Source of the DNA: Tubulanus polymorphus
Taxonomy: Eukaryota > Animalia > Nemertea
DNA: 64,000 nucleotides
Assembly (NCBI RefSeq): GCF_964204645.1
Contig: NC_134026.1
Location: forward strand, 17,022,150-17,086,149
Direction: 5' to 3'
Shown here: positions 3,331 through 50,819 of the stretch, piece by piece
Layout: each line of letters opens with the position of its first letter
How positions within the stretch are numbered: position 1 is the stretch's first letter
The notes under the pieces: model-generated
Seen by the model: only the letters and a program-made list of their open reading frames with translations
What the model was told of the DNA's origin: nothing
Databases searched by the model: none
Translations under genes and position numbers: made by a program

Positions 3331-3357
3331 AGGTAATGATGTGAAGTGAGGTATTGT

Positions 3358-3483
3358 ATTGTAAAAGTATTGAAAACAAAAACTCTTAAAGGAAAAAAGT
3401 ATTCTTTAGTGAAATATAAAGGCTATGATGATAAATTTAATGAATGGATTTTATCTAGTAAAATTAAAAGAATAACTGAATAA
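3358..3483 (+). pseudogene. C-terminal chromodomain of a Polinton retroviral-like integrase (fragment)
   Basis: IVKVLKTKTLKGKKYSLVKYKGYDDKFNEWI..* matches the chromodomain pattern xLVKWxGYxxxxNxW; directly upstream of the ATPase. Confidence 0.75.
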
Positions 3484-3499
3484 AGATTTATTTATATTT

Positions 3500-4087
3500 G
3501 AACCACATAATATGTTAGTTACTGGAGTAACCAACTGTGGTAAAACACATTTCATATTAGATTTGTTAGAAACTATTTATAAAAATCATTTTGATAATAT
3601 AATATTATTCTGCCCTACTTATGAAATGAATAAAACGTATAATAGGGATATAGCTAAGATAAAAAAGTTTATTATATTAAATCCTAAAACAGTAAAAGCA
3701 AATTTAGATAATTGTATAAAAATAGCAATTGATATTTATAAAGGATCAAATACATTATTCATTGTAGATGATTGTGCTAATTTAAAAGTTAGATTCAAAA
3801 GTTAGAGAAATTGAGTTATCTGGCTTTCTCTGGGAGACATTTTGGGATAACAACTTGGGTTTAAAATCAAAAACATAATTCAATTGTTAAAGATTTTAGA
3901 GAAAACATTAGATTTTTTAGTCTTATTCTACAATAAAGATAGAAAATCTTTGCAACAATCTCTGGAAGAAAATCAAATTATACCTACTGAATTACATGAT
4001 GAATATATGAATAAATTAAAAACTAATAAAGGTTCAAAATTATTACTGAGGCTTCAATTTCCATATGAATATAAATTTAGAAAATAA
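3500..4087 (+). pseudogene. A32/FtsK-like virion packaging ATPase, frameshifted
   Basis: Walker A GVTNCGKT, Walker B LFIVDD, then (other frame) AFSGRHFGITTWV*NQK with the GRH and Q motifs. Confidence 0.9.
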
Positions 4088-4104
4088 AATTTAAAAATAT
4101 TATA

Positions 4105-4757
4105 GAAACTATTTATATATCTATGTACTAGACGTACGAGTAAGAATCCAAGATTCTTGCTAAGAAAGTAAGAAAGTAAGAATTCTTTGATTCTTGCTCA
4201 TACGTCTAGTATAAGGATATATAAATTAGTTTTTATAAAAATTATAAATATAAATTATTAAATGAAATATATAATAATGAATAAATTATATATTAAAACT
4301 ATGTTTATAATTCATGTTTACACAGGGGTACAAATATATATATATATAATTTATATTTAGAATAATTATTCTGAAACTATTTATATCTATGTACTAGACG
4401 TACGTAAGAATTCTTACCAAGATTCTTACCAAGATGCTTACATACGTCTAGTACATGGATATATAAATAGTTTATAATAATTACAAATTTAAATTATTAA
4501 ATGATATATATAGAAATGAATAAATTATATGTTTTCTCCTAATAAAGATAAAAATAGATAATATTATAACTATTTCTATACTAAGATTAATAATTTATAT
4601 TTATAATTCTTATAAAAACTAATTTATATATCTATGTACTAGACGTATGAGTAAGAAAGTAAGAATTCTTACTTTCTTGAATTCTTGGATTTTTACCAAG
4701 ATTCTTACTACATGTAGTACGTCTAGTACATATAAATAGATATATAAATAGTTTTAT
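4105..4757. repeat. Array of three imperfect palindromes
   Basis: Arms AAACTATTTATATATCTATGTACTAGACGTA / TACGTCTAGTACAT..ATATATAAATAGTTT at ~4105-4234, ~4374-4473 and ~4613-4757; loops built of AAGA(A)TTCTT units. Confidence 0.85.
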
Positions 4758-5646
4758 AATAATTATTCTAATTTTGTTTCTAATAAATTTACAAAAATCA
4801 TCTTTGTTTATATCTAATTCACCGTAATTCTTAGGTAGATTTATTAACTTTAGTTGAGCCATCATTATGCGATAATTATGATTATCTATCTTAACTTCTT
4901 TTCTTAATTTTTCAAAGTATTCATCAAAATCATAAGAATCAAAATCAAAATGATATGCAAAATTATTTATCAGATAACTTAAATCTATATTTCTAAAATA
5001 TAATAATTTATATATTTGTTTAGGATTATTTTCTGCAAAAGCTAATAATTTATCAAATAACAACTTACTGAATATATAATATTGCTTAGTTTTAGGATTA
5101 AAATATTTGATATATTTCTTTGGGTTATTTAACATTGGTATCATACTCACCTTTTTAGAAACATTGATTAGATGTAATTTTGATTTATAATGAGTATTTT
5201 CATCAACAGTTTCAATTTTCTTATTACAATATTGACACGTTTTATTTCTTTCTATTTCTTCTAATTTCTTTTCATGTTCTTCTAACTTCCTTTCATTTTC
5301 TATATGCGCCTGAGATTTTTTATGTTTAGAAAAATTACTTTTAGAAATATCTAAATTACAAATATTACAATGTTTTTTAGAATTATCAATTATTTCATTA
5401 TCTGTTATATCATTATCATTAGTTTCAATTGGGTTAACATTATTTATTACATTATCCGTTATATTATCTATGGTATCATTAGTTCCATTTGTATTAACAA
5501 TATTTATTAAATTATCTATTATATTACTATCTGATATATTATTATCATTATTATTCTTTTCTTTTTCTACATGTCCCTTTGATTTCTTATGTGATGCCCA
5601 ATTTGTATATGATATATATTTCTTACATACGTCACAATATTTTCAT
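4632..5646 (-). pseudogene. Viral multi-zinc-finger protein (U1/matrin-type C2H2)
   Basis: YCDVCKKYISYTNWASHKKSKGH, HCNICNLDISKSNFSKHKKSQAH, CQYCNKK..THYKSKLH; 1-nt frameshift just after the ATG at 5646. Confidence 0.7.
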
Positions 5647-5841
5647 TTGTCTTTTTGGTTTTGATAACAGGTTTAATCTTTGTATAATAATTATCATTAT
5701 TCGATACAAGTAAAATCCCACAATAAAAGAATTAGATGATAAAATGTTTATTAAAACATATAAGAAATATTTCGGGTGGTTACTACCACCCTTCTTCGGT
5801 CTAAAATGACTTGCCAAATACTGCCAAGTATTTGGCAAGTC

Positions 5842-7069
5842 TAATTGAGAATTTACAATATTTAATTGCGCGTCAGATATAATATAAATATGCATTTTGA
5901 AATTAAAACCTCCTTTTTTCTTTTTCATGAATAATTGTATCCCATCATTAGTGTTCTGTAGCTTTTTACCAGAACCATGTAATAAATTATCTTCAGTTGT
6001 TCTAAAATCTAACCATAATGCATATCAATTACCAGTATATTAATCAATTTGATTAATATTACAATTTTCAGATGATTTAATTTTTCATTCATAAAATGTT
6101 TTCTAATTTCTGGCAATTGATCGATCATTCTCATTCCTTGGCAAAATGATTTATTTGCTATACCTTCGATAGTTATTTCTACTTTTGATATTTCAGGATT
6201 ATAATAATTATCAACATTTATTGCGCCATTAGTATATGTTGCAATGGTAAAAATATTAATATACCTTTAATAGATCTTCTTGGGAAGTTAATACTCTCAT
6301 TAATTATTTCATCATTTGCATTAATCGTTACAGCTTTAAATTTATCAATATAATCATATAATAATGAAGATCCTTGATTGTCTTGAGTTTGAATTATACT
6401 TGAAATATTTTCATCAGCTACTGTATCATATTCTAAACATATATTCGACAATTTATAACCCATATCTTTATTAACGCTAGATAATACAATTTCATTAACT
6501 AGAGCAAAAGTTATCTCAAATATAATATCTTCTTGAATTGCATATTTATATAAAGGTGCATTATTATTTATCAATTCAAAGTCTAATGGAATTTTATATT
6601 TACAACTATAAACCTTTTCTATTAATTTATCTGCTTCATTAGTTAATATTGCGCTATTAGCTTCTGATCTTAATTGATTTTGGTTTTCTGATTGGATGCC
6701 TTGAAATATCATATTATTTCTATTTTCTTTTGTTAACCATAAATCTTTATAATGCGTGAATAAATTATAATCATCTAATGAGAAAACTGTTTTTGGAACA
6801 ATCTTTATAGTTAATTTTTTAATCAAATATCTTCCAACATTATCAACAACATAATTATTATTATTACCAGTTACTTTTATATCAGCTGATAAATGAATAC
6901 TATTTGGAACATAAAAAGTATTTTGTGTTAATCGAGGAATTCTAAGATATAAAGTTTCAACAGGATTAATATTAGATGGATTATGAGTAATTATATGATG
7001 AGATCTTTCTGCTTTAATAGCATTAGATATTCTAGAATTCTTAGAAGGATTTATGTAACTCCAACTCAT
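5842..7069 (-). pseudogene. Major capsid protein (double jelly-roll/hexon-like) of the Polinton, frameshifted
   Basis: N-term INPSKNSR...ITHNPSNINP.ETLYLRIPRL; C-term ALWLDFRTTEDNLLHGSGKKLQN...HIYIISDAQLNI; resembles invertebrate Maverick MCPs; ~400 codons. Confidence 0.75.
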
Positions 7070-7122
7070 TTATTTAACAAAAAAAAATATTTATTTTTGA
7101 TCATGTTTATTTTTTATTATGT

Positions 7123-8813
7123 TTACTTGATATTTTTTATCATATTCACTAATCCAAAAATAATTGCACTTACAACTGTAATTAAAAATAAAATAATATG
7201 TTCTGCAGCAAAGTTAATAATATTTCCAGCAGATTTTAAAACAAAACCAACAATTGACGCTATAACTCCGGGTAAAGCTGCAACAGATTTTTTAGATAGT
7301 TCCCATAGACGTTTTGCTAATTTTTTCAAACCAACCTTAACTTTATCTTGTATAGAATTATTACTCGGAGGTTTATCCGGTTTATTGGGTGTATGTGTAG
7401 ATTTTAATGAATTTGATATAGCTAAACCTATTGTTGTAACTATCATAGTTACAGCTGTTAGAATTGAAAGAATTGTTATACCTTCTAATTTAAATAATAA
7501 TTTTATTCTATCTTTCAATGATAATTCAGAATCTGGTTTTATCAACAAATCTTTAAAAATAACTTTTAATTTTTTAATATGATTAAAGATTCATTGATTA
7601 TGATTAATGATTTCAATAATATATCTCTTTCTTTTTCCTGTAATTCTTTGTTATATTTTAAATCATCAATTTCTTTTTCTAAAGCTAACTTTCTGCTTTC
7701 ATAATCAGCTTCCTCGATTAATTGAAGATTTTTATCAAATTTTAATTGTTCTAATTCTTCATTTGCATCAGTTAATTCTTTTTCTAACATGGTTATTTTA
7801 GAAAATCTCATCTTAATATTAGCAATTTCACCAGCTGATTCTTGCATACCTTTAATTTCTCTACGTGCTTGTTCAGGAAATATTTTTAATTCTTCTTCAT
7901 TTAAATCAAGTAATCCTTTTTCTAACAAAAGTTGTATTTGATTTGTTCCAGTTTCAGTACCAGGTGTATCTAAAATACTAATCATATCTTCTTCAAATGA
8001 ATTTATTGTATCCAGTAAGTTATTTAAATGTTTTACTGCTTGTAATTGACTTGAAACATTATCAATTGGTTGAGTGTCTCTTCTCGATGTTTCTGGTGTT
8101 GAAGATCTTAATTTATCTAATCTATCAGCAAAATCTTCAGTTTCTGGTTCAACATAAGTAGGTTTTAGATTTGGATTTTTAAATGGCGAATATTTGTTAA
8201 TATCAATATCCTTAATTGGGGTTTTTTATTTATTCTATCGAGTGCATTCCATATAATTCTGCTAAATTCTCTACCACATTTTACCCCTTCAATTGTAGAT
8301 CTTGCTCGCATTCCAGGTTCAAATATATTTTCTTGGCCAATTCTAGATAATTGTATTGATACAGTTTTGTTTTTTAATTCAACATCATAAAACCATGCAT
8401 CATTTTTAAATTCTAAATCATTCATGAAAAATGGGTCATCTTTTAAAATTTGCATTACAACACCTTCTGAATCAATTTCATCTATTGCATCTTTTGGTAA
8501 TAATTCGTTAAAAATTTAATCTATTACTCTAGTTTTCATTAAAATATAATTCTTTTTTCAAATAAGTATCAGTTGATTTTTACTAATTTATCCATTAAAT
8601 CTTTTCTAAATATTACGGGTTTAATTACATTCCTTTCGGGAGCTGTCATATATTCTATATATTTTTCACGCGTTTCGTAATCAATTTCACCAGCATCATC
8701 ATCTTCAGCTAAAATAGAATTAAATGGCCAATCATCATCTTCATCATTATTTGTTGTGGTTCATCACTTATACCGGGTTCATCAAAAGTATCCATTGGAA
8801 TATCTTCTTCCAT
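7123..8813 (-). pseudogene. Long acidic/coiled-coil protein with C-terminal hydrophobic helices (putative membrane-active virion protein), copy A
   Basis: ORF pieces 8165-8455, 7566-7985 and 7123-7548; tail IKLLFKLEGITILSILTA...AALPGVIASIVGFVL. Confidence 0.65.
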
Positions 8814-8829
8814 TTATATAATAAATGAA

Positions 8830-10127
8830 TTAAAATTTAAAATATAATATTCCTCCTATTACAATTCCTATACAAGTTAAAGCTAATTTAGCATTTTCAT
8901 GGGATTTATTATCATTATTAGTTTTAATTATATCATGTTGGATAATATCAGTTTTTATATTTTCTGTTGTATTGTAATCTTTTATTTTAGAATCATTATC
9001 CAATTTGATATTCTTAGTTTTAGTTTCTGTTGATTGAATATGTTTTTTATTTTTTCACCTTCAATTAATTTTGGAGCAGTAATAATTTTTTTATTTATAT
9101 CATTTAATCCAAAATTATTATTTATTGTTGCAGTTTTAATTAAATTATTATAACCAATTATATTTCCCATTTTTAGTATTAAATCGTCAGAAATAATTAA
9201 TAAATTAGGACCTATACAATAATTTAATCTTACATGTGATTTATCTAGATAATTTTGATATCTTACTATATTTTCTGGAATCGATCTATTTTTATCATTA
9301 TGAATGGAATCTTCAAATAAAACTTTAAATTGTTTTTGTGTATCAAATGATATATTTAAATTTCCAATTATCGGGGATCTTGTTTCAACTTGTGCACCTA
9401 GAATACATATCAAATAAGTTCTAATTGATTGATTTATTCTTTGTATACCTGATTTTGTAAAACCTTCACTATTTTCTAAAATAAAGTAAACCCAACCATT
9501 ATTATTTTCTTGTTTTAAATTATCATAGAATTTCGGTAATTTACTGAAATTTAATGTTTTAAATCTATATTTTCTATTTTACCATAACCTAATTTATTAT
9601 TATAGATATAATAAAAACTATTAGATGGTATGGGAAGTGTACAATATTCTGTTTTTATAAAACTTTGATAAATTAATATTATTATCTAATTTCTTAAAAT
9701 ATCTAGATCCTGGTAAAGGGGTCTCTAATTCATTTAATATTAATCTTACTTGAAAATAAGTATGGAATCTAAATAAAATTTGAATTAATTTATATTTAGA
9801 ATTATTCAAACGATCATTCCAACTAATTCCACATCTTGTTGTTGCACAATAAACTGCAAAATTTATTTGGTTCTGCCAATACTTCATATTAGATTTTAAT
9901 AACCATTGTTTTTCATCTTTCAATTTTTTAAAATTTATCTAATATATATGAAATATATTTTCCATCTTTGCATTAAAATTATTAGTTTCAGTAACATGAA
10001 TATCTAAATCAATTAATGAATTTAAAACTTCATTTCTATATGAAATATCTTTATTAAAATCTATTGCTGGAATATTATATTTAATTGATTTTTTATATTG
10101 AAAAGCTTTTGGAAAACTATCTACCAT
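8830..10127 (-). pseudogene. Conserved Polinton protein of unknown function with C-terminal TM segment, copy A
   Basis: YWQNQINFAVYCATT, YLICILGAQVETRSPIIG; frameshifts and an ~85-bp internal deletion relative to copy B. Confidence 0.65.
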
Positions 10128-10156
10128 TTATATAATAAGAAAATTAATAATTAATT

Positions 10157-10563
10157 ATTTCTTTTAATAATTATATTAATACTATTTAAACTTATTATAT
10201 AATATAATATATTTTTTAATTTATTTATTTCTTTTATATTAGATTTTATTTTTTCTTCATTACTTTTTATATTTAATTTTGAACTTATTCCGGTTAAAAC
10301 ACTTGAACCTAATCCTAGCACGCCAATTGATATAGCTAAAGGTGTTAATGAACTAAATATTGCTAGAAATGTTATTACAGAACTAATTGTAACTGAGCCA
10401 CTAATAATAAGATAATATAAAATTTTACTTTTTAAATATTTTTTCTTTTTTTAACTTTTAAATCATTTTCAAATTCTAATATTTGTTTTTCCAAATATAA
10501 TTTTAATTTAGTTTTATTTATATCATGAGGAATAATATTAACACCATCAACTTTATCATCCAT
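10157..10563 (-). pseudogene. Small two-TM membrane protein, copy A
   Basis: ILYYLIISGSVTISSVITFLA / LAISIGVLGLGSSVLTGISSK; paralog starts at 18405 (+). Confidence 0.6.
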
Positions 10564-10582
10564 TTATTTAGCAAAAAAATTA

Positions 10583-11005
10583 CTAATTAGTAAATTTATA
10601 AGCAACAAATATAACAATAACTGTTCCACCTAAAATCCAAATTATTTCATATTGTTGTTCTTCTTTACTTGGGGTATAATAATATGATAATTTAGGTTTA
10701 CATAGATGTAATTTTTCTTCATTTGTTACTGTGTTATATAAACTCATAGCTTCATCGACTGATTGAAAATCTCTGTGTGTAATTTTCTGATCATATAATT
10801 CTTTATTGATGTAATCCATGTAATTTTGTCTCTTTTCTCTATATTCTTCTGCTGCTTTATTATATTTCTATAATGCTAAGTTATGTCTTCTTTGTTCTCC
10901 TAATGAACTATTTTTGTCAATATGTTTAAATAAATATCCACCACCAGTAAATGCTAAAGCGTTTACAATTGCTGATCCTATAATAGTTATAATTGCAGAT
11001 GTCAT
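10583..11005 (-). pseudogene. Small coiled-coil protein with hydrophobic termini, copy A
   Basis: AIVNALAFTGGGYLF..EQRRHNLAL*; internal stop; paralog of 17963-18385. Confidence 0.65.
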
Positions 11006-11029
11006 TTATTTAGTAAAAACATTACGTAT

Positions 11030-11225
11030 TTATATAGGAGGAATATATTTTTGTTTTTCTAAATAATCAATTGTTAAATTAGATAAAGTTACTCCTAACG
11101 TTAATTTTAAAATATCATTGATATCAAATCTATCAACATTAACACTTCCCATTTTAAATACTTTTTTTAATACCATTGAATAACCAACAGTTCCAACTGA
11201 TAGAAATACTCCATTATATGAACCA
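11030..11225 (-). pseudogene. Small viral protein (5'-truncated), copy A
   Basis: Paralog of 17718-17939; start codon region deleted. Confidence 0.55.
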
Positions 11226-11552
11226 GTTAATATTTATAAAATATTTAGTTAACTTATTTATGATTATTTCAACATTTATTTCATTACTACTTTTATGATT
11301 ATCATATATTTTAGATAATATATTTTTAATATCATCGATAATTCCATCTTCATTTAATTCATAATATTCTAAAGATGTTTGAATTAAATCAATTACTTTT
11401 TCTAAATTATAATTTTCTTTATTAATCGTTGATGCATCTTTAAATGATTTACTTTTTATATCAGTAATTACATCATTTAGTTTAATCCTCATTTCTTTAC
11501 CATGTTTAAAATCAAACCAAAAACATATACTCGGCCCAACAGTTATATTCAT
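11214..11552 (-). CDS. Viral hypothetical protein, copy A
   Basis: MNITVGPSICF; paralog of 17362-17721. Confidence 0.6.
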   Translation of the reverse strand: MNITVGPSICFWFDFKHGKEMRIKLNDVITDIKSKSFKDASTINKENYNLEKVIDLIQTSLEYYELNEDGIIDDIKNILSKIYDNHKSSNEINVEIIINKLTKYFININWFI

Positions 11553-11568
11553 TTATATAGTGAAAAAA

Positions 11569-12330
11569 TTACTCTTTACATCTTATAACTAATTCATAAA
11601 TTACAGGAAAATTATTTAAATCGATTAAATATTCATCATGATGTCTTACTTCTAATTTGAAATTATTAAATCGTGAAATACAAGGCTTAAAATCACATTC
11701 TGTTTAATTAAAATTTAATTGCATTCCAAATTCTTTAACATTCTTCGATGGTAAAATATTTAATATACTAGAATTACAAGTTATATCTTTAGTTGCTTCG
11801 AATGTCTTTGTAGGATCAATTAAATTGCAATAAATATAAAAATGCGTGTAAGGTATTCAGTTTGGTGTAGCATCAATATTTGTAAAAGATCTATCTGGAG
11901 GAATTCCTAACAGTTTAGCTATAGGTTTTTTTTTCACCATTAATTTATGTTTTTCACTATTAGACAACCTTATCTTAATTATATCAGAACTCTCACTTTT
12001 TAAAAATCTAATACTGAACCCGGAATTACTACCTAACTTGTGCCAGGCTTTTCTATGAATTTCTTGCGATAATGTATCTATATTATATAACCCCAGTTTT
12101 AAATATATATAGGACCATTCATCTTTATTTTTATCAAACATTAAAAAGGCTCTATGTTCAATAGATTTACCCGATATATTATAAAAAGAATTACATTAAC
12201 TTACATTTACTAATTTTAAATCAACACAATTTTTAAATTCTCTATCTAATTGTACTAGTAAATTATGTGATTTATAATTTGTAAGTCTTCTTGAATCAAC
12301 ATATATTCTATATTCTTTTAATTCTACCAT
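11569..12330 (-). pseudogene. Minor capsid (penton-like) protein, copy A
   Basis: Paralog of the intact 16590-17345 ORF, with stops and frameshifts. Confidence 0.7.
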
Positions 12331-12344
12331 TTATTCTACATATT

Positions 12345-12694
12345 TTCTTATTCAAAATCTATATCATGGTGCCCCTTTTCATTCTTACCTTAATATATGA
12401 CATAGAAATCACCTGACCATAATTCTTCTAGATCTTCACTAGATAATCTATGAAATCTATCTGGTAAATATATTCTGAATTTATATGTATTTCCTTTTAA
12501 TCCTTCAAGGGAATAACTAATTTATCTCCATATGTGTTAGAAACTGTATCAATATTTGTAATTAAATATTTCTTATGAATTGTTAATTCATTTAACTTCT
12601 TAAATTTATAATCTACAGATTTAGCATTTGTGATATCTTTTATTCTATCTAGAAATGATTTGTTGTTCTCACTGTGTACTTGTTTACTCTCCAT
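12345..12694 (-). pseudogene. Small viral protein, possible OB-fold ssDNA-binding protein
   Basis: FKKLNELTIHKKYLITNIDTVSNTYGDKLVI...YLPDRF pattern seen in invertebrate Maverick accessory genes; fold is inferred. Confidence 0.4.
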
Positions 12695-12709
12695 TTATAA
12701 TACATATTT

Positions 12710-15240
12710 TTAGATATATTTGAAAAATTTAGAGATGTTAATTTGAATCATTTTAATGTTGATCCCTGTTATTGTTATTCAAGTCCTGGTTTAACTTGGC
12801 AATGTGGTTTAAAATATACAAATGTAGAATTAGATTTATTAAAAGAACCAGATATGGTTTTATTATTTGAAAAATCAATTAGAGGTGGAATTAGTGGTGT
12901 TATGGGAGATAGACATTTTAAAGCAAATGATGAATATAAATTTTTATATATTGACGCCAATAATTTATATGGTTGGGCAATGATGCAACCTCAACCGTAC
13001 AAAAATTTTATATTAACAGAAGTTGAAAATGATGATAAAACTAATTATGAAAGCGCAATTATGAGTTTAGAAGATGAAGCACCAATTGGTTATTTCTTTG
13101 TAGTTGATTTAGAATATCCTGATAACATTAAGTTTGAAACAAGAAACTTACCATATTGCCCAGAACATTTAGCCGTAGATGAAAGTTATTTAAGTGAATA
13201 CCAGAAGAAAATAAAACCGAAAGATCATGTTTTTACAGAAAAATTAATACTTACTCAAAATAATAAATACAATTATATTGTTCATTATAGAATGTTAAAA
13301 TTCTATCTAACACAAGGAATGAAATTAAAGAAAGTACATAGATATATTGAATTTAATCAATCGAAGTGGTTAGAAAAATATATAGATTTTAATACTCAAC
13401 AGAGAACTATATCAAAAACAGATTTTGAAAAAGATTTCAAATTAATGAATAATAGTTTTTATGGTAAAACCTGTGAAAATATTCGTAATAGAAACGTCAT
13501 TAAATTAGTAAATAATTCTGAACGACAGAGACATTTACAATCAAGTCCTAGACATTTAGGAAATAAAAGATTTGAAGATTATTTAACCGCGGTAAAATTA
13601 AAAAGAACGTCAATGAAATTTAATAAACCTATTTTCATTGGTTCAACTGTTTTAGAAATATCAAAATTATTAATGTATGATTGTTATTATTATGTTTTAC
13701 AACCTTTTTTTGGGAAAAGCATATTGAAATATTATATTTTGATTCTGTTACAGCTGATACCCCAATATTATTAGAATGCAATAACCAAATATTAATTAGA
13801 AGGATTTCAGAAATAATTCCAAAACAAAATGAACAGAATTAATATAAATAAATGGATTAATGGATGTTTGGACAATAAATGGATGGACAAAATTAAAGAA
13901 TATTATTAGGCATAAAACAAATAAGAAAATCTATGGAGTTAGAACTAAATTAGGGTTTGTAGATGTTAGAGAAGATCATAGTTTAATTAAACGAAATGGT
14001 AATGAAATAAAACCAACTGATATAAAAATTGGAGATGAATTATTACATTAAAGATTTTACCCAAGAATGAATCATATGTCATTTGATGAAATAATTGATA
14101 ATATTTATAATATAGAACCCAAAACATTGGCAGAAAAATAATATTTTATTAAAGGATTTTTTATGGGTGATGGTTCAGCAGGTGTGTATAAATCTGTTAG
14201 TGGAACTAAATATTGTTAGTATTTATGCAATCAAGATTTGAAATTATTAGAAAGAATAAAGAAATACTGTGAAGAAGTTTATTCGCACAAAGTTTTTAAA
14301 ATCATGGATGTTATGAAATCATCAGCAGTTTATAGAACACTTGTAAATAATTCTTAAGATTTTCCTATAAAATATAATGATGAATTCTATATTCATGCAA
14401 TAGTGAAAAGTAATACTTCAACCAAAGAAAAGATAGTGCCAGATTATGTATTAAATGCAGAATATAATCTTAGAAAATGGTTCTTCATTGGATTCTACAC
14501 AGCAGATGGTGCTAAAAATGTACGATTTCTCAAGTAATAAGATTTGCACAAAAAGGAAAAGTTGCAATAAGTGGTTTAAATGTGTTGTGTAATTCACTAG
14601 GTTTTAATATGCGTTTAGAATTTATGGAAGATAAACCAAATTGTTTTAAGTTAACACATGTAGAAAAAGAATTAACAGAAGAAGTTAGAGATTTATTTGA
14701 AATATATAACCCAACTGACTATGTTTATGATTTATCTACTGAAGATGGAACATTTAACTGTGGATTTCCATTAATTTGCTTCAAGACCGATAGTTACATA
14801 CTAAAAATCAAGACAAATGACATTACAAAAGACTTAAAAACATTAAAACATCATTTTGACTTTAGCAATTATCCAAAAGATTATGAATTATTTAGCAATG
14901 ATAGTAAAAAATTCCTGGTAAATTTAAAGATGAATTAGGGGGTGATGAAATGATTGAATTTGTTAGGATAAGAAGTAAAATGTATAGTTATAGAACAAAA
15001 GATCATGGAGCTAAAAAGTTAAAAGGGATCACAAAGCATGTGGTTGACAAACATATAGAATTACAAGATTATATTAAGTGTTTATACAACTTAATAGTTA
15101 TGAAACATAAAATGAATTGTTTAAGATCAGAAGATCACGAGATGTACATTAATGAAGTTAAAAAAACTAGTTTAAATCCATTCGACGATAAGAGATATAT
15201 TTTTGATGATGGAATAAAAACATTACCTTATGGCCATTAA
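12710..15240 (+). pseudogene. Protein-primed family B DNA polymerase (5'-truncated, frameshifted, intein-containing)
   Basis: DIFEKFR..DP..SSPGLTW, IRGGIS, motif A LYIDANNLYGWAM, motif B KLMNNSFYGKT, split motif C YFD|TDS, RSKMYS, KGI, DDKRY..TLPYGH*. Confidence 0.95.
13744..14785 (+). mobile_element. Intein with LAGLIDADG homing endonuclease inserted in PolB motif C (decayed)
   Basis: Block A SVTADTPILL directly after YFD; block B VDVREDHSLI; LAGLIDADG-1 FIKGFFMGDGS (14145-14177); LAGLIDADG-2 FFIGFYTADG (14481-14510); block F YVYDLSTEDGTF; ends PLICFK immediately before TDS. Confidence 0.93.
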
Positions 15241-15364
15241 AACATAAAATCAAGATCACCATACTCGAAATCACTACTGGTTTCTTCATTTTTATTTAAT
15301 TGTTTAGGTTATTCCATTTCATTTTTCTCATTTAAATAAAGTTCTATATTATTCCACATTTCAT

Positions 15365-16521
15365 CTAGCTCTCTTTCTTTTTGTTCGTTAATTCATCAAA
15401 TGGAATTATAATATCGATGTTTAAAAAATTTACAATCTTATTTAAACAGAATTCATAATTAATTGAATCTGTTATTTTATTATCCACATAGTATTTTAAT
15501 ATGTTTGAGAATGTTTCTTTTATATTTTCCATATCTTCTTTTGTTAATTTAGGTTTTTTATAATAATCGTTTAATAATAAATATAAATACATTTTCTTTT
15601 CTTTTGTGTTAAATGTTGGTGGAATAATTGTTTTTTATTATATCTTTCTTAGTTATTTCACCATTTTTATTTTCTATTATTTTCATTTTTTCAATCCATT
15701 GCTTATATTCTGGTGTATGATCTTCCATAGAAAATATCTTAAAAATTTCATCTAGATATTTTAATATTGGTTCAATAAGAATATCTCTAGTTTTTTCATC
15801 ACCCCATAAATTTCTTTGCCATCCACATTCATTACAAAATATCACAGAATTTTCTTGTCTTAAGTACTCATAAATACATTGTGGGAATTTTTTTCGATCA
15901 TATCTTGGTAATAGATCTTCATTAAGTTCTTAGTATTTACTTACGTTTTCTCTATGTTTTATTGTTCTATTATGTAGATTTGAATTACTTGTTGTAATAA
16001 TCAATTTACAATATTTACAATAATATGTTTTTCTTGCTAATTCATTATATTGTTTTTCCAACTTTTCAAGTGTTTCTTCATTATCTGGTAACGTATTCTC
16101 ATATTTCATTTTTTCTAATATTTTATTTTTTCTTTCATTGAAATCTGTTTCAAATTTATTAGAAATTTTATCTATATGTGCTTTACGAAATTGATGATTC
16201 TCTCAATCTTCTATATTTTCGGGGCTATATTTTATTCGACAATGCTCACAGAAATGATCATTTATATTATTCTTATCATAGAATAAGAAAGGTCTTTTCC
16301 AAATAATTTCAGGTTCAGTTTCAACAGAATTACTATTACTTTTTTTAATTTTACACTTCTCTGAATGTTTTTTAACATAATTTCTTGAGAATAATTTATT
16401 ACAATTTGGGCAGTTTATTTTAGGGGGTTTATAATTTTTATCATGTTTTTTCATATGTCGAACCATAATTCCTTTTTCTTTGAAGTTCACCACAAATTTC
16501 ACATGGTATCTTCTCTTCCAT
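15365..16521 (-). pseudogene. Viral zinc-finger protein(s), frameshifted
   Basis: CEICG..RHMKKH, CPNCNKLFSRNYVKKHSEKC, FCEHC, YYCKYC..LHNRTIKH, FCNECG. Confidence 0.6.
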
Positions 16522-16589
16522 TTATTAAGGAAAAATTTGTTTTAAATTAATTTTTAGTGATTCGAGGTAATTTTTTTGTGTTATAAATA

Positions 16590-17345
16590 ATGGGTGAATT
16601 AAAAGAATATAGAATATTTGTTGATTCTAGAAGACTTACAAATTATAAATCTCATAATTTACTAGTACAATTAGATAGAGAATTTAAAAATTGTGTAGAA
16701 TTAAAATTAGTAAATGTAAGTTTATGTAATTCTTTTCATAATATATCGAATAAAAGTCTTGATCATTTAGCTTTTAAAATTCATGTTAGAAAAATTGATA
16801 AATGGTTTCATCTTTATCTAAAACCAGGATTATATAATTTAGAAACATTAGCGCAAGAAATTAATAAAAGAGCTCGTTTAAAAATGGGCGCTGCTGCTCG
16901 ATTTGAAATTAAATTTATTAAAAGTGATAGTTCGAATAAAGTAAGAATAAAGTTAACTAATGAACAAAATAGATTTCTAGTGAGAAAACCTTTAGCTAAA
17001 CTGTTTGGAATTCTTCCAGATAGAGATTATTCAAGTATTGAAACTTATACAAATTTAATGACTTTTACACACTTTTATATTTATTGCAATTTTATTGATC
17101 CTACAAAAATATTTGAAGCAACTAAAGATACAATTTGTAATTCTAGTATATTAAATATTTTACCATTAAAAAATGTTAAACAATTTGGAACGCAAATAAA
17201 TTATAATTTAGCTGAATGTGATTTCAAACCTTGTTTTTCACGATTTAATAATTTCAAGTTAGAAGTTAGAAATCATAATGGATACTTAATTGATTTGAAT
17301 AACTTTCCTGTGATATATGAATTAGTTATAAGATGTAAAGAGTAA
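16590..17345 (+). CDS. Minor capsid (penton-like) protein, copy B, intact ORF
   Basis: IFVDSRR..LDREFKNCVELKLVNVSLCNSFHNIS..GLYN..YIYCNFID..LEVRNHNGYLIDLNNFPVIYELVI, a single jelly-roll penton pattern. Confidence 0.75.
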   Translation: MGELKEYRIFVDSRRLTNYKSHNLLVQLDREFKNCVELKLVNVSLCNSFHNISNKSLDHLAFKIHVRKIDKWFHLYLKPGLYNLETLAQEINKRARLKMGAAARFEIKFIKSDSSNKVRIKLTNEQNRFLVRKPLAKLFGILPDRDYSSIETYTNLMTFTHFYIYCNFIDPTKIFEATKDTICNSSILNILPLKNVKQFGTQINYNLAECDFKPCFSRFNNFKLEVRNHNGYLIDLNNFPVIYELVIRCKE

Positions 17346-17361
17346 TTTTATCACTATATAA

Positions 17362-17721
17362 ATGAACATAACTGTTGGTCCGAGTATATGTTTTGGATTT
17401 GATTTTAAACGTGAGAAAGAAATGAAATTTAACATTAATGATGTAATAACACATATCAAAAATATTGCATTTTCTAATGAAACAACATTTGAATATGAAA
17501 CAACAATAAATAAAGAAACTTTTAATGTAGAAAAGATTACTGATTTAATTAGAGAGTCTTTAACATTTTATGAATTAGATGAAGATTTCATTATTGATGA
17601 TATTAAACAAATAATAACTGAAATATATAAAAATGAAACTAATAATATTATCAATGTTGAAATAATTATAACTAAGTTAACTAAATATTTTGGAGATAGT
17701 AATTTTTTTATTAATAAATGA
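17362..17721 (+). CDS. Viral hypothetical protein, copy B
   Basis: Intact 119-aa ORF with a paralog in copy A. Confidence 0.65.
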   Translation: MNITVGPSICFGFDFKREKEMKFNINDVITHIKNIAFSNETTFEYETTINKETFNVEKITDLIRESLTFYELDEDFIIDDIKQIITEIYKNETNNIINVEIIITKLTKYFGDSNFFINK

Positions 17722-17939
17722 GTGATAATAAGTGGATGATAACTGGTTTATATAATGGAGAATTACTATCAGTTGGAACTGTTGGTTATCCAATGGTATT
17801 AAAAAAAGTATTTAAAATGGAAAGTGTTAATGTTGATAGATTTGATATAAATGATATTTTGAAATTAACATTAGCAGTAACTTTATCTAATTTAACTATT
17901 GATTATTTGGAAAAACAAAAATATATTCCTCCTATATAA
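17718..17939 (+). CDS. Small viral protein, copy B
   Basis: 73-aa ORF ending DYLEKQKYIPPI; overlaps the previous stop. Confidence 0.6.
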   Translation: MSDNKWMITGLYNGELLSVGTVGYPMVLKKVFKMESVNVDRFDINDILKLTLAVTLSNLTIDYLEKQKYIPPI

Positions 17940-17962
17940 ATGCGTAATTTTTTACTAAATAA

Positions 17963-18385
17963 ATGGCATTTGCAATTATAACTATTATAAGATCGGCAAT
18001 TGTTAACGCTTTGGCATTAACTGGTGGTGGATATTTATCTAAACATATTGATAAAAACAGTTCGTTAGGAGAACAAAAAAGACATAATTTAGCGTTAGAG
18101 AAATATAATAAAGCTGCAGAAGAATATAGAAAAAAGAGGCAAAACTATATGGATTACATCAATAAAGAATTATATAATCAGAAAATTACACATAGAGATT
18201 TTCAATCAGTCGATGAACCTTTGAGTTTATATAACGCAGTAACAAATCGTGAATAATTACATCTATATAAACCTAAATTATCAGATTATTATACACCAAG
18301 TAGTGAACAGAAGAAATATCAGATAATTTGGATTTTAGGTGGAACAGTTATTGTATTATTTGTTGCTTATAAATTTACTAATTAG
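17963..18385 (+). pseudogene. Small coiled-coil protein with hydrophobic termini, copy B
   Basis: Premature stop at 18256 relative to copy A. Confidence 0.65.
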
Positions 18386-18404
18386 TCACTTCTTTTCTAA
18401 ATAA

Positions 18405-18803
18405 ATGGTTGATAAAGTTGATAATATTGATATTATTCCTCATGATATAAATAAAACTACATTAAAATTATATTTGAAAAAACAAATATTAGAATTTGAA
18501 AATGATTTAAAAGTTAAAAATATTTAAAAGGTAAAATATTTAAAAGGTAAAACTATATACTATTTTATTATAAGTGGTTCAGTTACAATTAGTTCTGTAA
18601 TAACATTTCTAGCATTATTCTCACCATTAACGCCTTTAGCTATCTCAATTGGAGCTTTAGTTTTAAGTTCAAGTGTATTAACCGGCATAAGTTCAAAATT
18701 AAATATAAAAAGTTATAAAGAAAAAATAAAATCTAATATAAAAGAAATTCATAAATTATAAAATACACTAGATTATATACTAAGTTTAAATGGTAATATA
18801 ACA
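18405..18803 (+). pseudogene. Small two-TM membrane protein, copy B
   Basis: Paralog of 10157-10563; frameshifted; 3' end joined to the next gene by a deletion. Confidence 0.55.
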
Positions 18804-18804
18804 G

Positions 18805-19717
18805 TTGAAGTTTTGTACTGAATTTAATATAGACATAAATCATTCTGATTTTAGAACAAAAATTGGAACAATAAGATCACTTCCTTGCCCTAAAAAGATT
18901 GCAGAATATTGTACACTTCCCATACCATCTAATAGCTTTTATAATATCTATAATAATAAATTAGGTTATGGTAAAATAGAAACTAAGGATTTAGAAACAT
19001 TAAATTTCAATCCATTACCGAAATTTTATGATAATTTAAAACAAGAAAACAATAATGGTTGGGTTTATTCTATTTTAGAAAATAGTGAAGGATTTAGTAG
19101 AGCTGGTATACAGAGAATAAATCAATAAATTAGAACTTATTTGATATGTATTCTAGGTGCACAAGTTGAAACAAGATCCCCAATAATTGGAAATTTAAAT
19201 ACATCATTTGAAACACAAAAACAATTTAAAGTTTTATTTGAAGATTCCATTCATAATGATAAAAATAGATCGATTCCAGAAAATATAGTCAGGTACCAAA
19301 ATTATTTAGATAAATCTCATGTAAGACTAAATTATTGTATAGGTCCTAATTTATTAATTATTTCTGATGATTTAATATTAAAAATGGGAAATATAATTGG
19401 TAATAATAATTTGATTAAAACTGCAACAATAAATAATTCATTTGGATTAAATGACATAAATAAAAAGATTATTACTGCTCCAAAATTAATGGAAGGTGAA
19501 AAAATTAAAAAACATATTCAATCAACAGAAACAAAAACTAAGAATATTAAATTAAATAATGATTCTAAAATAAAAGATTACAATACATCGGAAAATATAA
19601 AAACTGATAATATTCCACACGAAATAATTAAAACTAATAATGAAAATAAATCCCACGAAAATAGCTATTACTTGTATAAGAATTGTAATAGGAGGAATAT
19701 TTTATTTTAAATTTTAA
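18805..19717 (+). pseudogene. Conserved Polinton protein, copy B (5' part deleted)
   Basis: Near-identical to the reverse complement of 8830-9650. Confidence 0.65.
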
Positions 19718-19734
19718 TTATTTTTATTATATAA

Positions 19735-20645
19735 ATGGATGTAGAAGGTGGAGAAGATTATGAAATGGGTACTTACGACGAACCCGGCATAACTAAAGAA
19801 CAACCACCTGATTTTAATGAAACAAATGAGCCAGAATATAATAATAATTTAGCAGATAGCGGTTTTAATGATAATATAATAACAACAGGCGATTTTGATT
19901 GAAGAGCTGGACGGAGAATAAATATTGAAAATGAAAATCCAGATTTAGTAAGACAGAATTTAGAATATAATGAATATATAAATAATTCTAAACCTATATT
20001 TGAAAAATCTGGATATAATAGAAATGATCGGGGTGCCAGATATTTAGTACAAGAATTAAAATCTTTAGATGGTGAATATTACTATCATTTGAAAGATGAT
20101 TATTATATTAATATCACTTATAAAAATCAAAATCAAATATTAGCAGAATCAACTTTGAGTAATTTAGAACCATCTACAATTACAAGAATAAGTAATAGTA
20201 ATGAAATAGAAAATGTTACACAAGAAGAAATAAATCAAAATAAAAGAGTATTTAAACAAAGAATTAATGACTTATTTGAAACAATCAATAATAATTTAGA
20301 AACAGAAACAACCTCTGAACAGAATATAACTTCAAAAACTAGTAAACTTAAATCAAATAAAGTTCCAATTGAAAAACTTTTACCGAATGGGTTACCAGAT
20401 GCAACAGATCAAGAATTTAAAGATTTAAATATATTTTCTGATAAAGCAATTAGAGAAATTATTAGTATAAGACTTGCATCTGATAAAATTGCCCATGATA
20501 AAAGTATAAGAGATTTTACAATTAGAACTTTAGAAAAAGAAATAACTGATAAAATTAAAGAAATAGAACAATTAAAATTAGATAGAGATAATAAAGTTAT
20601 TGAAGAAATTGAATTTAAAAAAAGAAATGCATATTTAGAAAAGGT
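19735..20645 (+). pseudogene. Long acidic/coiled-coil protein, copy B (3'-truncated)
   Basis: Syntenic with 7123-8813; shares EDYEMGTYDEPGI / EDIPMDTFDEPGI and IFSDKAIREI..LEKEITD..EQLKLD. Confidence 0.6.
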
Positions 20646-21170
20646 TTTATTTTCTCAGGTTACCTCTCACTCAGTATTTACTTGACTTCACAATGATCGT
20701 TTGATTTCTGTTCTGGCCAAAAAGCACACATATCACACTAGTACCGATCTGACCCCTAGCTACCAACTGCTTTGTTACAACCTTCGAATTATCAAGTGTG
20801 TTTCTCCCTTGATGTCATCCTCCCTCTGGCAGGAATTCGATCCTGATGGCGTCGCAACACTCAGCCACGGCACAAACCCCTGCCACACCACACCGGGTGC
20901 GCAGATACATGCGCAGATTAGATGAAGTCATTATTTGCCATAAGGATTTCTAACCGTGCAATCTCGATGACATCAGTTTCGAATCCCTGCCGGGGAGGAT
21001 GCCTGGATGTACGCACTTATTCAAGGAGTCTATGGTGAATCTGATTATTAAATCCCAACCGGCAAGTGAATACGTAGACCTACCCAATAGACAGCTAATC
21101 TTCGTCTTGAACAGAAACTGATACCAAACCATCCCTATCTACAGAGCAATATATGGAATTTGACGAACGG
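20646..21170. mobile_element. Two related tRNA-derived SINE-like copies, head-to-head
   Basis: Minus copy CATCAGGATCGAATTCCTGCCAGAGGGAGGATG (~20815-20850) and plus copy CATCAGTTTCGAATCCCTGCCGGGGAGGATG (~20971-21001); B-box-like core. Confidence 0.45.
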
Positions 21171-23427: not shown

Positions 23428-25552
23428 TCAAATATCTGGGACAAGTTCTTCTTCTGGTAAGCAAATAATCGGTATCTCGTGTATTGTCACCGTGTGTGAC
23501 GTGCTACCGTCGATGTCGATTGCTGGTCGAGTATTTCCCCAAACACGATGAGGTTCATTAGGTACGAACTCCTCTTCTATACTGTCTTGGGGTGAAAGTC
23601 TGCGAGAGCTGGCACAACTACTGTCACTACCTAAACTTGTGCTTCGCATTTCAGGTGCCAATTTATCTCGTTTAAATCGATATATTTCACCAGGTTCTGT
23701 ATGTTTGCGATGTAACCGTGGTCTAGAGCGGGGAGATCGAGAACGTATTTCAAGTTTATTTTCTTTGTTCCCTTTCAATTCGGGTTCGACTCGACTAAAT
23801 TCGTTAAATAAGGCGTCACTTTTTGAATCTATACTGTAATCACGGGGTAAAGTTCGGGGTTTTAGTTCACGAGTAAGAGAATGCGACTTGAAAAATCGAC
23901 TGAACACTGAAAATTTGCTGGGAGCTGAATTTTCTTCGAAACTGTCACCTGATGGAGGTTCTGATTTGGAATCAGTTTCGGGTTCGTTAATACTTTCATA
24001 TACATGTATTATTTGCCGCTCGGCTCGATACTCTCTACGTTTTTTGGACGCAGTTTTTCCATTTCGTCGATCGAAATGCGACCCTGGCTTTACAGATTTT
24101 GAACGTTTCGATGCGATTGCCAAAGTTGGCAATGCAGCCGCATCGGGGGATTTATCTACTGAACTTTGTACATCGTATTCTTCCTCCTCTTGTTCGTAAC
24201 TACCTGTATCGAGAGCGAAGTGTATTTGTTTTTTCGAAAGTTTTGGTGGCTTATTTGTTTCCAACGACTTGTAGCCACTATCTGCTTTCATCTGCTGTAA
24301 TTTATGAGTTTGACTGTCACCGGTACTATCTGTGTTGTCAGTAGTGGACTCAAACGAAGTTGTAGTATCAACAGGTCGACTGGTATCGGACACTTCACCA
24401 TCTGTGTCCATAGTTTCAACGCTATCAAAGCTGTTTTCTGTGCTTGTTTTTACCTCGAACTTCTTCAGTCGTTTCGACAAAATACTCGTATAAGTTTGCC
24501 TGCGAGCTTCGTAATTCGGATGAAGTAAATTATATTTAGAGAATTCACCGGGCGAATCAGCCTGCTGATCGCTCATCACATGATCACTTTCCTCTTGGAA
24601 TGTCATCGGTTCAGTGTTTGATTCGAATGAGGTTGTATACGACGTTGTTGCTATCTCTCTATCCGGTGATTGATCCGGTGATGCTGTATCCTCCATTTGA
24701 ATAGTGTCGCTTATATCTTCTTCTTCTTCGAATGTCGTCCTGAGATTCCACAATTCCCGATATTTCTGAGATCCATTTAATGTTTCTGTGTCGTCACTAC
24801 CAGTGAGACTCATCGCCTCAATAACTATTTCGTCCAGCATTTCAACCGCCGCATCGCTGTTGACATCTTCTTTGCTACCGGTATCGTTATAGCGAACTTT
24901 ACTACGACTCAAACAAGGTGAACCCCCACCTTCAGAAACAACGTCGTAGTCAGCATTATAAAAGGGTCCTTTATTTAACTTGTTATCGAATTCATATGCG
25001 CACAAACCTCCGTCGTAACTTTTTACACGTCGTTTTCTGGCAGAATCCCTCGGATATATATCATTTGAATCCACTGGACTCACAGTTTCCATACTCACTG
25101 AGTGTCTATTGGCTGGTGTTGATCGTACTACCATATGGTTTTCTATTGGAAAAACGCCGTTTTCGTTTTGTTGCCTAGTGGGTTTCATCTTACTTGATTG
25201 ACTGGCGTTACTCGTTTTACTACGTATACTGCCAAGGCTACTATTACTGTTCGAAATACAATGTACGTCAGCGCGGACTTCGGTTTTCGTACCTTTAGGA
25301 ACAGGCGACAGAGCTTCCTGTTGTACATTTGGTAGCATAGGGGTAGATGGATCAATGTGGACGTCACAATAACTATCGTTGAACATGCTGGGGTCATCTG
25401 TCATTGAGCGAGTGTAGCGATCACCGATGTGACGATCTTGGTAAATCGTTGCTGGTACGCCAACTGAGCATTGTCGTACAAGTTGTGATAAACTTGGTCC
25501 CTTCTCAATTCTCATTTTCTTCAAGTGATGATAATCTCCGTCCGTGTAACGA
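23428..25552 (-). CDS. CBARP: CBARP-like terminal coding exon
   Basis: Acceptor ttttttccag|T CGT TAC; 708 codons including the stop. Confidence 0.9.
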
Positions 25553-45119: not shown

Positions 45120-46811
45120 AGCACTTTTTAATTCAATTATGTTATTAACATAATTCTTTTACTACATCTTCGCATCTGAAAGAAATATATTGACTTTTAT
45201 ATAAATCGGGATAGTCTGATTTTATATAAATACCATACGCAGCAGCTCTTTGATGAAAATTTTAGATTGTATTTATAATTGGTGGGTCTTGTATTGTGTC
45301 TTCATTCAATTCATTTCCTTTATCCATTGATTTTAATAATTATTTTTGATTATATATTTCTTTTCTATCTTGGTCGATAATTCTTTAATTCTTTTTTCAA
45401 CGATTCAAAATCTCCATATATTACAGAATGAACAAGATTTTTAAATTTATGATTAGTAAATTTCAATTTATAATCTTTTTCTGTTGGCATTATTAATTTA
45501 CAAAACATCTTTATTATCACATAACTCTTAATGTTTAGTAATGCATTTTCAGTTCTAAATTTTGACAAACATCTTCTATATAAATTCTTTTTATGTTAAA
45601 ATCACTTTCTGTTCTAAAGAATAAATCTATTTGTTTTAACCACATATAATGTTCCTTTTTATAGTATAATGAATCTAAAACATTTTCATCATCATAATGT
45701 TTTGTTAGATATGAGGCTTCTTATGTATAATCTTTAATATTTTCACCTTTTGTCTCTGGTAGTTGCATTAATTCGAATATATTCATTTCTAAATTATTTA
45801 CTTTTTCCATATTAGGTATCATTTGTATAGTAACTGGGTATTGGTTAATTTTATATAATGATTCATATTTCCGATAATATGTTACTCTACAAACATTTTT
45901 CACAGTTGGGTGTAACCAACTTATAGTCGATCATAGAAAACATTTATTATCATCATTTTGAACATTTATTACTGCTTTTGTTGTAAATGGTAGTTTAATA
46001 TTAGATTATGCTTCAATATCCTTTTCTGTTGTATGTAAGGTTTGAATCATTTGTTAACATTTTATTACTTTTTGATGTTTTATTTCCTTTTGTGTTATAA
46101 ATATTTGAATCTAAAAATATAATTTCAGTCAATGATAAACCAGAACGTTCAAAATATCTTTCTTCAATATGGCGTTTCAATTCATTAAATATTTTTTCTA
46201 ACTTCTCTTTTATTTTGGTTTTTGAAATAATTTCTTCAGTGTGTGTTTGAATGTTGTACTCCATTTTTTCGTTTGACTTTATAAAACTTACTTTTCCATA
46301 GATACTAATTTTTGGATATTCAACATTTGTTACAAAGTCCATAATTTTTTCCATTACTTCAATATATTTACTGTAATCTTCTATTGTGGTGCCTTAAAAA
46401 ATCTAAATATGATAGCTGCAGGACCAATCTTACTATGTACTGTTTCTAAAATTTCAATCGTATCTTTTATTTCTAGTCAATATAATTCTTTACATTTTCC
46501 ATATAAGATTTATTTAAAATAGATTTAGTTTTTTCAATAGATTTTTATAGTTGTTGAGGTTTATCATCAAAATATTCTGTTCCTAAAATATTATATATAT
46601 TAAACCTTGTTGATGTTTTTGTGTCTCAAGATGTCTATCATAATTCCTTTTACTTATAAATTCATTACAAACATTACATTTAATTTATGATTTGTAGTTT
46701 TTTCCACGCCGAGATTTATTAGATTTATCAATATATTTTTTACAATATGTACAATAATATTCATTTTTATTAAAATCAAATTTTGTTTGTTTGGTGTTCA
46801 CTCTCTCCCAT
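45120..46811 (-). pseudogene. Polinton pPolB N-terminal fragment (zinc fingers, terminal-protein region, Exo I)
   Basis: YYCTYCKKYIDKSNKS; FERSGLSL; LPFTTKAVINVQNDDNKCFL; NNLEMNIF; HYMWLK; RRCLSKF; VIYGDFES; many stops and frameshifts; TAAATG start. Confidence 0.85.
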
Positions 46812-50747: not shown

Positions 50748-50819
50748 CTTGCACTTATCTATCCTGTATTGCAAACGCAGTTGCTAACCACAAATTGGTC
50801 ATCTGTGACAACGGTAATG

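Follow-up and report, generated by a model that had tools for sequence, protein, structure and literature searches.

The described inteins closest to the one reported here lie in the DNA polymerases of giant viruses. The Mimivirus PolB intein is of the allele class pol-c (Ogata et al. 2005, PMC549080), and endogenous giant viruses found on nuclear scaffolds of algae and labyrinthulids have likewise been described as carrying inteins in their DNA polymerases (Gallot-Lavallee et al. 2023, PMC10710043). A eukaryote-wide survey of 2018 recorded nuclear inteins in fungi, algae, amoebozoans and a few protists, along with inteins of large DNA viruses; animals and Polintons are absent from its lists (PMC5784728). 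For the protein-primed polymerases (pPolBs) of Polintons, HNH and VSR nuclease insertions have been reported in pPolB2 (Jeong et al. 2023, bioRxiv 10.1101/2023.08.22.554363; Krupovic et al. 2024, PMC11071308), and Krupovic et al. suggest that pPolB nuclease insertions stem from 'intein invasions' (PMC11071308). The main text of Jeong et al. 2023 (bioRxiv 10.1101/2023.08.22.554363) mentions neither intein, nor LAGLIDADG, nor homing, and an intein is likewise unmentioned in the main text and one supplement of Starrett et al. 2021 (PMC8502044). In the literature that we searched, with Repbase, InBase, most subscription journals and several supplements lying outside the search, we found no description of an intein in a pPolB or in an animal genome.

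Here we describe such an insert in a 64,000-nucleotide stretch of DNA (the window, meaning the whole stretch that was analysed). Our preferred reading, which we consider probable, is that it is a dead intein in a Polinton pPolB, likely going back to one gain from a giant-virus-type polymerase intein that has persisted by splicing and homing.

A decayed intein in the polymerase of a Polinton-like element

The first-pass annotation had claimed that a 1042-bp insert splits motif C of a pPolB as IEILYFD|TDSYILKIK. Six-frame translation confirmed both ends: the polymerase reading ...KHIEILYFD stops at 13743 and TDSYILKIK picks up at 14786, and the 1042 nt between them, starting as SVTADTPILL at 13744, have nearly the same GC content (26%) as the exteins (25-26%). 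The layout claimed along with it, that is an N-terminal Ser, block B, two LAGLIDADG motifs, block F and a +1 Thr, was recovered block by block at the expected places (Table 1), with Ser at 13744 as the N-terminal nucleophile and Thr at 14786 as the residue that follows the intein. The block-F Asp and the block-B His are retained in the window intein, the block-B Thr is not, and the C-terminal end is Phe-Lys, not Asn. Two frame breaks (near 13833-13860 and 14525-14537) and four stops (at 14049, 14139, 14217 and 14355) leave an intein ORF that is not continuous with the exteins.

Table 1. Features of the polymerase, the intein, the surrounding element and the flanking DNA (positions are those of the window)
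Feature	Position	Strand	Evidence
Rearranged AT-rich (GC about 19-28%) Polinton-like element holding the pPolB, approximate extent	3340..20660	.	Composition, ORFs, self-BLAST; ends by eye
Chromodomain stub, likely C-terminal end of a truncated integrase	3358..3474	+	Chromo in Pfam, E 9e-5 (under cut-off)
A32-type packaging ATPase, first open part	3476..3802	+	Pfam Pox_A32 E 1.8e-6, 28.1 bits, cut-off 22.8
Likely double-jelly-roll major capsid protein, partial	6221..7069	-	ESM Atlas feature matches 0.96-0.98 to viral/capsid clusters, a lead (recognition 2022)
N-extein: polymerase part of Polinton pPolB (motifs A, B, first half of C), 5'-truncated	12704..13743	+	57% to P0001 over 346 aa; 83% to P0135
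Decayed intein with double LAGLIDADG homing-endonuclease domain, 1042 nt	13744..14785	+	Translation, Pfam, P0001 identity
Intein block A, first residue Ser	13744..13833	+	Translation; 13/18 identical to P0001 across junction
Intein block B VDVREDH; His retained, Thr position altered in window copy	13959..13979	+	Translation, relatives
LAGLIDADG motif 1 and acidic catalytic residue	14145..14174	+	Translation, Pfam
LAGLIDADG motif 2 and acidic catalytic residue	14481..14510	+	Translation
Intein blocks F and G, FNxGFPLI signature (block F 14720-14755); without terminal Asn	14720..14785	+	Translation, P0001 alignment
C-extein: TDS (+1 Thr) through pPolB end	14786..15240	+	P0001 alignment
CBARP-like host exon, 2.8 kb from element	23431-25620	-	Atlas 0.92, low recognition 1366
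CFAP90 host exon	50271-50780	-	E 9e-26

Comparison with Hint and LAGLIDADG profiles, proposed in the first-pass annotation as a check, held in part: both Pfam families matched, but with the stops read as X the middle segment reached 22.3 bits (E 1.6e-4) against the LAGLIDADG_3 cut-off of 22.5, and its Intein_splicing match (E 1.8e-3) was below the cut-off. A phmmer search of the broken middle segment against the PDB gave no match below E 0.2. The same segment is 63% identical to the intein of the database protein P0001 (E 4e-84), and an X read-through of the whole window intein is 59% identical to it over 353 columns. As for the expectation that the polymerase would be colinear across the insert, the closest polymerase relative, P0135 (81-83% identical), is intein-free and reads KHIEIMYFD-TDSYILKLK, matching the window at the site and on both flanks. 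On its sequence features, the insert is thus confirmed as a decayed intein with a Hint domain and a double LAGLIDADG endonuclease, inserted at D|TDS in a Polinton pPolB.

The host polymerase carries lesions of its own, with frame breaks near 13714-13725 in the N-extein and near 14905-14914 in the C-extein, and it lacks roughly the first 830 residues, its match to P0136 beginning at residue 835. Because of the frame breaks and stops of the intein, its altered block-B Thr and Phe-Lys end, the frame breaks of the exteins and the loss of the N-terminal ~830 residues, the window copy is dead and unable to make a working protein. Four further pieces in the window align colinearly with P0001 at 57-72% identity. 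The extein pieces of the window had no Pfam match, and in window-type polymerases the PF03175 score is weak or nil (0-62 bits). PF03175 is present in the intein hosts P0001, P0168 and P0025 (111 bits in the P0025 polymerase), the host protein being a pPolB and not an RNA-primed PolB of the PF00136 type. We infer that the window-type polymerase probably belongs to the Beta adintovirus PolB class and the P0025 polymerase probably to the Alpha class. An Endonuclease_7 (HNH-like) domain was also found in relatives of the window polymerase. A second decayed piece of the same pPolB family, limited to the N-terminal part, lies at 45148-46800 on the minus strand and is 50-62% identical to P0136 in most of its pieces.

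Two hallmarks of Polinton/Maverick elements (adintoviruses), a pPolB and a packaging ATPase, are both present in the AT-rich element. The candidate capsid ORF had no Pfam match. Among the element ORFs scanned, in which broken frames were covered non-exhaustively, no rve integrase or cysteine protease domain was matched, and no terminal repeat pair was found at the apparent ends, both of which look truncated, the interior being rearranged. The chromodomain stub we take to be linked to an integrase. Because terminal repeats, an rve domain and a protease were not found in these searches, the assignment of the element to the Polintons rests on the polymerase, the ATPase and the capsid lead. Self-BLAST revealed an inverted duplication (7675-12331 against 16589-20642, 72-90% identity) that encloses the pPolB; its arms hold facing, diverged copies of structural and accessory genes, and the left arm removes the 5' part of the polymerase. 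Three related hairpin-like repeats, about 68% alike and with a conserved TATCTATGTACTAGACGTA arm, occupy 4068-4765 between the ATPase and a zinc-finger ORF and might possibly be an origin or mark the place where element ends meet. The motif TATAAATG occurs upstream of several element ORFs (8811-19737), and 9 of its 15 matches in the window fall within the element; across the window it is not enriched (15 found against 10.1 expected), the element being AT-rich and partly duplicated. Remnants of a tandem Penelope-like retroelement with a 685-nt period (GIY-YIG and reverse-transcriptase matches) were seen at 941-2810.

Intact and empty alleles and the proposed persistence of the intein by homing

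The top match to the insert was P0001, an open-frame protein of 1693 aa with PF03175, Intein_splicing and LAGLIDADG_3; the remaining 11 matches of that search were PF00136-type PolBs, 30-39% identical where the match was near full length. Inteins at the same site of a pPolB were also found in P0025, P0026/P0269, P0027 and the P0168 cluster, as well as in the partial pPolBs P0151, P0221, P0235, P0244 and P0402, the locus L057 having the protein end of P0151. The intein is open-frame in P0001, P0025, P0026, P0027 and P0168 together with its cluster members. All 12 full-length pPolB inteins examined, which amount to five independent sequences plus near-copies (seven of the 12 being near-copies from one cluster and two from another), keep Ser1, TEDH, the block-F Asp, the terminal Asn, the +1 Thr and both LAGLIDADG acids. 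The penultimate His is missing in 2 of these 12, as it is in P0081 of the Mimivirus cluster. P0168 lies above the cut-offs of Intein_splicing, Hom_end, LAGLIDADG_3 and TIGR01445. The AlphaFold model of the P0001 intein (pLDDT 94.4) has as its top Foldseek matches the endonuclease-bearing inteins TliVMA, PI-PkoII, PI-PfuI and PI-SceI (E 7e-18 to 4e-11), and the predicted structure is that of a Hint fold with a nested LAGLIDADG domain; the intein alignment profile also matches PI-PkoII (E 1e-16).

Intein-plus and intein-minus pPolB alleles, for which the first-pass annotation had proposed a search, both exist among database relatives (P0001 and P0168 against P0135). Among the 120 pPolB matches listed for the N-extein, 6 have the intein, 109 are empty and 5 are unclear. 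Scans of viral contigs with the window segment and with P0001 returned no loci; a scan with the intein alignment returned 56 viral and at least 80 metagenome loci, and in only one of the 136 that were listed (L057) is the host a pPolB, so that pPolB inteins look rare beside those of giant viruses. Several giant-virus-type PolBs (P0017-P0022, P0024, P0028, P0029, P0031 and P0032) carry two or more related inteins, some of them in motif B at N|S junctions. Two other identities considered for the insert, a Hedgehog-type Hint domain and a free-standing nuclease gene, were ruled out, given that both splice junctions lie at the catalytic site and that empty alleles exist; a chance match was rejected as well.

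In intact elements, Ser1, the block-B His, the block-F Asp, the terminal Asn and the +1 Thr would excise the intein by class-1 splicing, and excision would rebuild the DTDS of motif C and so give a working polymerase. The freed nuclease could then cut the empty site of a sister Polinton in the same cell, repair would copy the intein and some flanking DNA into the cut copy, and empty alleles would diversify at the site. The intein-bearing element would have been amplified to tens to hundreds of copies in its host, the window copy decaying after its insertion. Co-conversion and escape from cleavage are each expected to yield a peak of divergence at the homing site. The P0168 cluster has 136 members, of which the 15 listed lie on contigs of 57 kb to 1.0 Mb, and it includes intact occupied and empty alleles whose exteins are 97-98.7% identical. 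When seven occupied alleles were compared with seven empty ones over the last ~620 residues, the mismatch was 30.7% up to a distance of 15 aa from the site and 3.1% over the rest, and the top-ranked mismatch windows were centred at most 10 residues from the site; the empty alleles among themselves differ by 16.2% near the site against 3.3% elsewhere. These alleles are close kin and non-independent, and we give the figures as a pattern without a p-value, one such as homing, or escape from it, would produce. Over the 109 listed empty alleles, mean entropy is 0.69 in motif C against 0.30 in motif A and 0.23 in motif B.

Two sequence details at the site deserve separate mention. In 36 of the 109 empty pPolB alleles the Thr of motif C is replaced by Cys (YMDCDSF), and others read YIDTDAF (among P0153-P0267); such variation is unusual for a catalytic motif and might possibly represent escape from the intein nuclease. 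Residues 1179-1183 of P0001, just before the intein, read IIYGD, as in giant-virus hosts, against LLY[MQL]D in its empty relatives, and may possibly be a remnant of the donor flank.

The separate intein and extein trees proposed in the first-pass annotation were both built, and they gave a single clade of pPolB inteins whose carriers are scattered over the extein tree. For the latter, 32 of 151 pPolB rows were left out as undetermined and the remainder was reduced to 34 rows; intein presence required seven changes on this tree against a shuffled mean of 7.3, the carriers being dispersed among empty alleles, and most of them have empty sisters. Within the window-type class the two trees are broadly congruent (P0026/27 together, P0151/P0168/P0244 as a group, and the window and P0001 within a larger clade), which suggests a long-resident intein that close relatives have lost and regained. 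The same congruence fits long co-descent with loss as much as it fits homing, and it is an argument for regarding the intein as a real but non-homing passenger, gained once long ago, inherited with the polymerase and made patchy by precise loss and by exchange of polymerase segments; Polintons are indeed known to exchange polymerases (bioRxiv 10.1101/2023.08.22.554363). We consider this unlikely, in view of the two nuclease motifs kept in every full-length intein, of the divergence peak at the site of alleles that are otherwise 97-98% identical, and of the presence of the same intein clade in the P0025 polymerase, which has no significant similarity to the window-type P0136 (best E 0.4) even though its intein is 44% identical to that of the window.

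For homing, the protein must be expressed and spliced, and the cell must also contain a sister copy that is empty; the intein is therefore an indirect reporter of element activity and of encounters between elements. With occupied and empty alleles coexisting at 97-98% identity, both homing and escape are open to direct test; the intact members are candidate new meganucleases and splicing tools.

Ancestry of the intein and its genomic setting

The finished intein tree (57 rows, 366 columns, mixture model) was built from 54 of 172 de-duplicated candidates and three locus rows, the giant-virus rows having been collected with pPolB-intein queries and their sampling being biased accordingly. All nine pPolB inteins in it form a single clade (support 100/99), on which two quick trees agree, and this clade lies within the giant-virus-type PolB inteins that occupy the same site, 'giant-virus-type' meaning that the best extein match among three baits was the Mimivirus PolB. 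The sister group of the pPolB clade (support 93/81, unstarred) likewise ends in FN[TS]GFPLI, and some of its members are loci from giant-virus MAGs; the intein of the Mimivirus cluster is more distant from the pPolB clade than this sister group. Over its full length, the P0001 intein is 39% identical to that of P0081, whose cluster is named Acanthamoeba castellanii mimivirus PolB. That the D|TDS site is shared with Mimivirus-type PolBs, as the first-pass annotation had stated, is correct: it is the pol-c site, as in Mimivirus (PMC549080).

The P0025 intein adjoins the window and P0001 in the tree (99/90). When an AU test was run under a simpler model, a tree constrained to keep it apart from the other pPolB inteins was not rejected (p 0.665) and scored 11.5 lnL better than the quick tree. 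Whichever placement holds, the intein would have had to cross between polymerase classes or be gained a second time, from a related donor. A single gain of the pPolB intein from a giant virus appears likely, and the direction, from giant virus to Polinton, is the one indicated by nesting with moderate support in a tree without archaeal pol-c inteins. The first-pass annotation had proposed that an intein moved from an NCLDV-like polymerase into the pPolB of an animal-infecting Polinton; the giant-virus-type kinship is upheld by the nesting, but the event was not a one-off, as the inteins form an established clade in several lineages and in two polymerase classes.

Another source or direction is conceivable, in which a third party supplied both Polinton and giant-virus inteins, or in which the giant-virus subgroup ending in FN-GFPLI derives from Polintons. 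The tree leaves some room for it, as its root was not inferred, the outgroup did not fall on one side of a branch, the sister group has a support of 93/81 and archaeal pol-c inteins were left out. We nevertheless consider it decidedly unlikely, since several supported giant-virus-type branches fall outside the pPolB clade and giant-virus-type hosts dominate the intein family: among 283 proteins with an intein domain, 225 have a Mimivirus-type extein, 17 a pPolB and 41 are unclassed. A gain by Polintons from a giant-virus-type polymerase, which we prefer, would document the passage of genetic material from giant viruses into small integrating viruses.

The DNA flanking the element bears on its host. 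The CBARP-like exon matches Atlas clusters that are all eukaryotic, most commonly from Arthropoda or Chordata, and the window also contains the CFAP90 exon and host-type repeats; CFAP90 is not restricted to animals. DNA reads from four runs, belonging to two studies under one species label, cover the whole stretch. In the raw-read run X5 (1934 Mb read), 9145 reads were placed, 62 of them at 99% identity or more, 1287 at 95-99%, 3719 at 90-95% and 4077 below 90%. Depth in X5 was 68-277 in intein bins, for the most part from reads of 80-95% identity, and 281-704 in extein bins. A single-copy sequence would have a depth of about 1-4 at an assumed genome size of 0.5-2 Gb. Taken as an uncalibrated guide, the X5 depth suggests that the intein-bearing copies in the species likely number in the tens to hundreds. 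Extein-to-extein joins without the intein occur in 26 X5 reads, against 237 reads over position 13749 just within the intein, and a contig of run X1 has a similar direct join, so that the species also has empty alleles. At the last intein codon and at every one of the four stops, 94-100% of the X5 coverage differs from the window, and these lesions are therefore private to the window copy or to few copies. The element thus likely belongs to a multi-copy genomic family with occupied and empty alleles in the species.

Integration in the germline is suggested by the host-like exons in the window and by the many diverged copies among the reads, and the host is likely an animal. That the element instead lies outside an animal germline, as a free virus, symbiont DNA, a mis-join or part of a non-animal eukaryote, is highly improbable: the low recognition of the CBARP call (1366), the wider distribution of CFAP90 and the mere 62 of 9145 reads at 99% identity or more would allow it, but besides the element the window holds both exons, host-type repeats and another decayed piece of pPolB, stops and frame breaks in a gene are incompatible with a replicating virus, and diverged copies occur in four runs from two studies of one species label.

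A wider reading is that giant-virus-derived inteins colonised both major Polinton pPolB classes and still home between Polinton copies in animal nuclear genomes, where they drive escape variation of the catalytic motif of the polymerase. This reading we hold tentatively, falling just short of favouring it. If it were true, inteins would be splicing and homing in animal cells, and giant viruses and animal Polintons would have shared cells or hosts.

Comparison with described inteins and nuclease insertions

At this locus an intein of a known allele class occupies a host protein of a new class and, probably, the nuclear genome of an animal. The intein family of Polinton polymerases extends inteins to this host-protein class and to a new genomic setting, and it offers a concrete case for the suggested intein invasion of Polinton pPolBs (PMC11071308). 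The Alpha and Beta adintovirus PolB classes (Starrett et al. 2021, PMC8502044) resemble the present element in combining a pPolB with an A32/FtsK-type ATPase and a capsid-like gene, the latter a candidate here. The HNH and VSR insertions are similar in that nuclease domains lie within Polinton pPolBs, as they do here; however, no splicing domain is described for them in the text of those reports, whereas here a complete Hint and LAGLIDADG intein interrupts the catalytic motif.

The inteins of endogenous giant viruses (Gallot-Lavallee et al. 2023, PMC10710043) show the same principle, a viral DNA polymerase gene that carries its intein into a eukaryotic nuclear genome. Their hosts are algae and a protist, and the main text of that study contains none of the terms animal, metazoa, polinton or maverick (PMC10710043), in contrast to the multi-copy Polinton in a likely animal described here. 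With the PolB inteins of Mimivirus and other giant viruses the likeness is closest, and comprises the D|TDS site in motif C, the Ser start, the +1 Thr, the double LAGLIDADG and homology over the full length. The residues preceding the site vary (YFD, YMD, YLD, SSD, YGD) and the pPolB inteins form a clade of their own; the host differs as well: in place of an RNA-primed PF00136 polymerase it is here a protein-primed PolB of the PF03175 type, encoded by a small integrating element.
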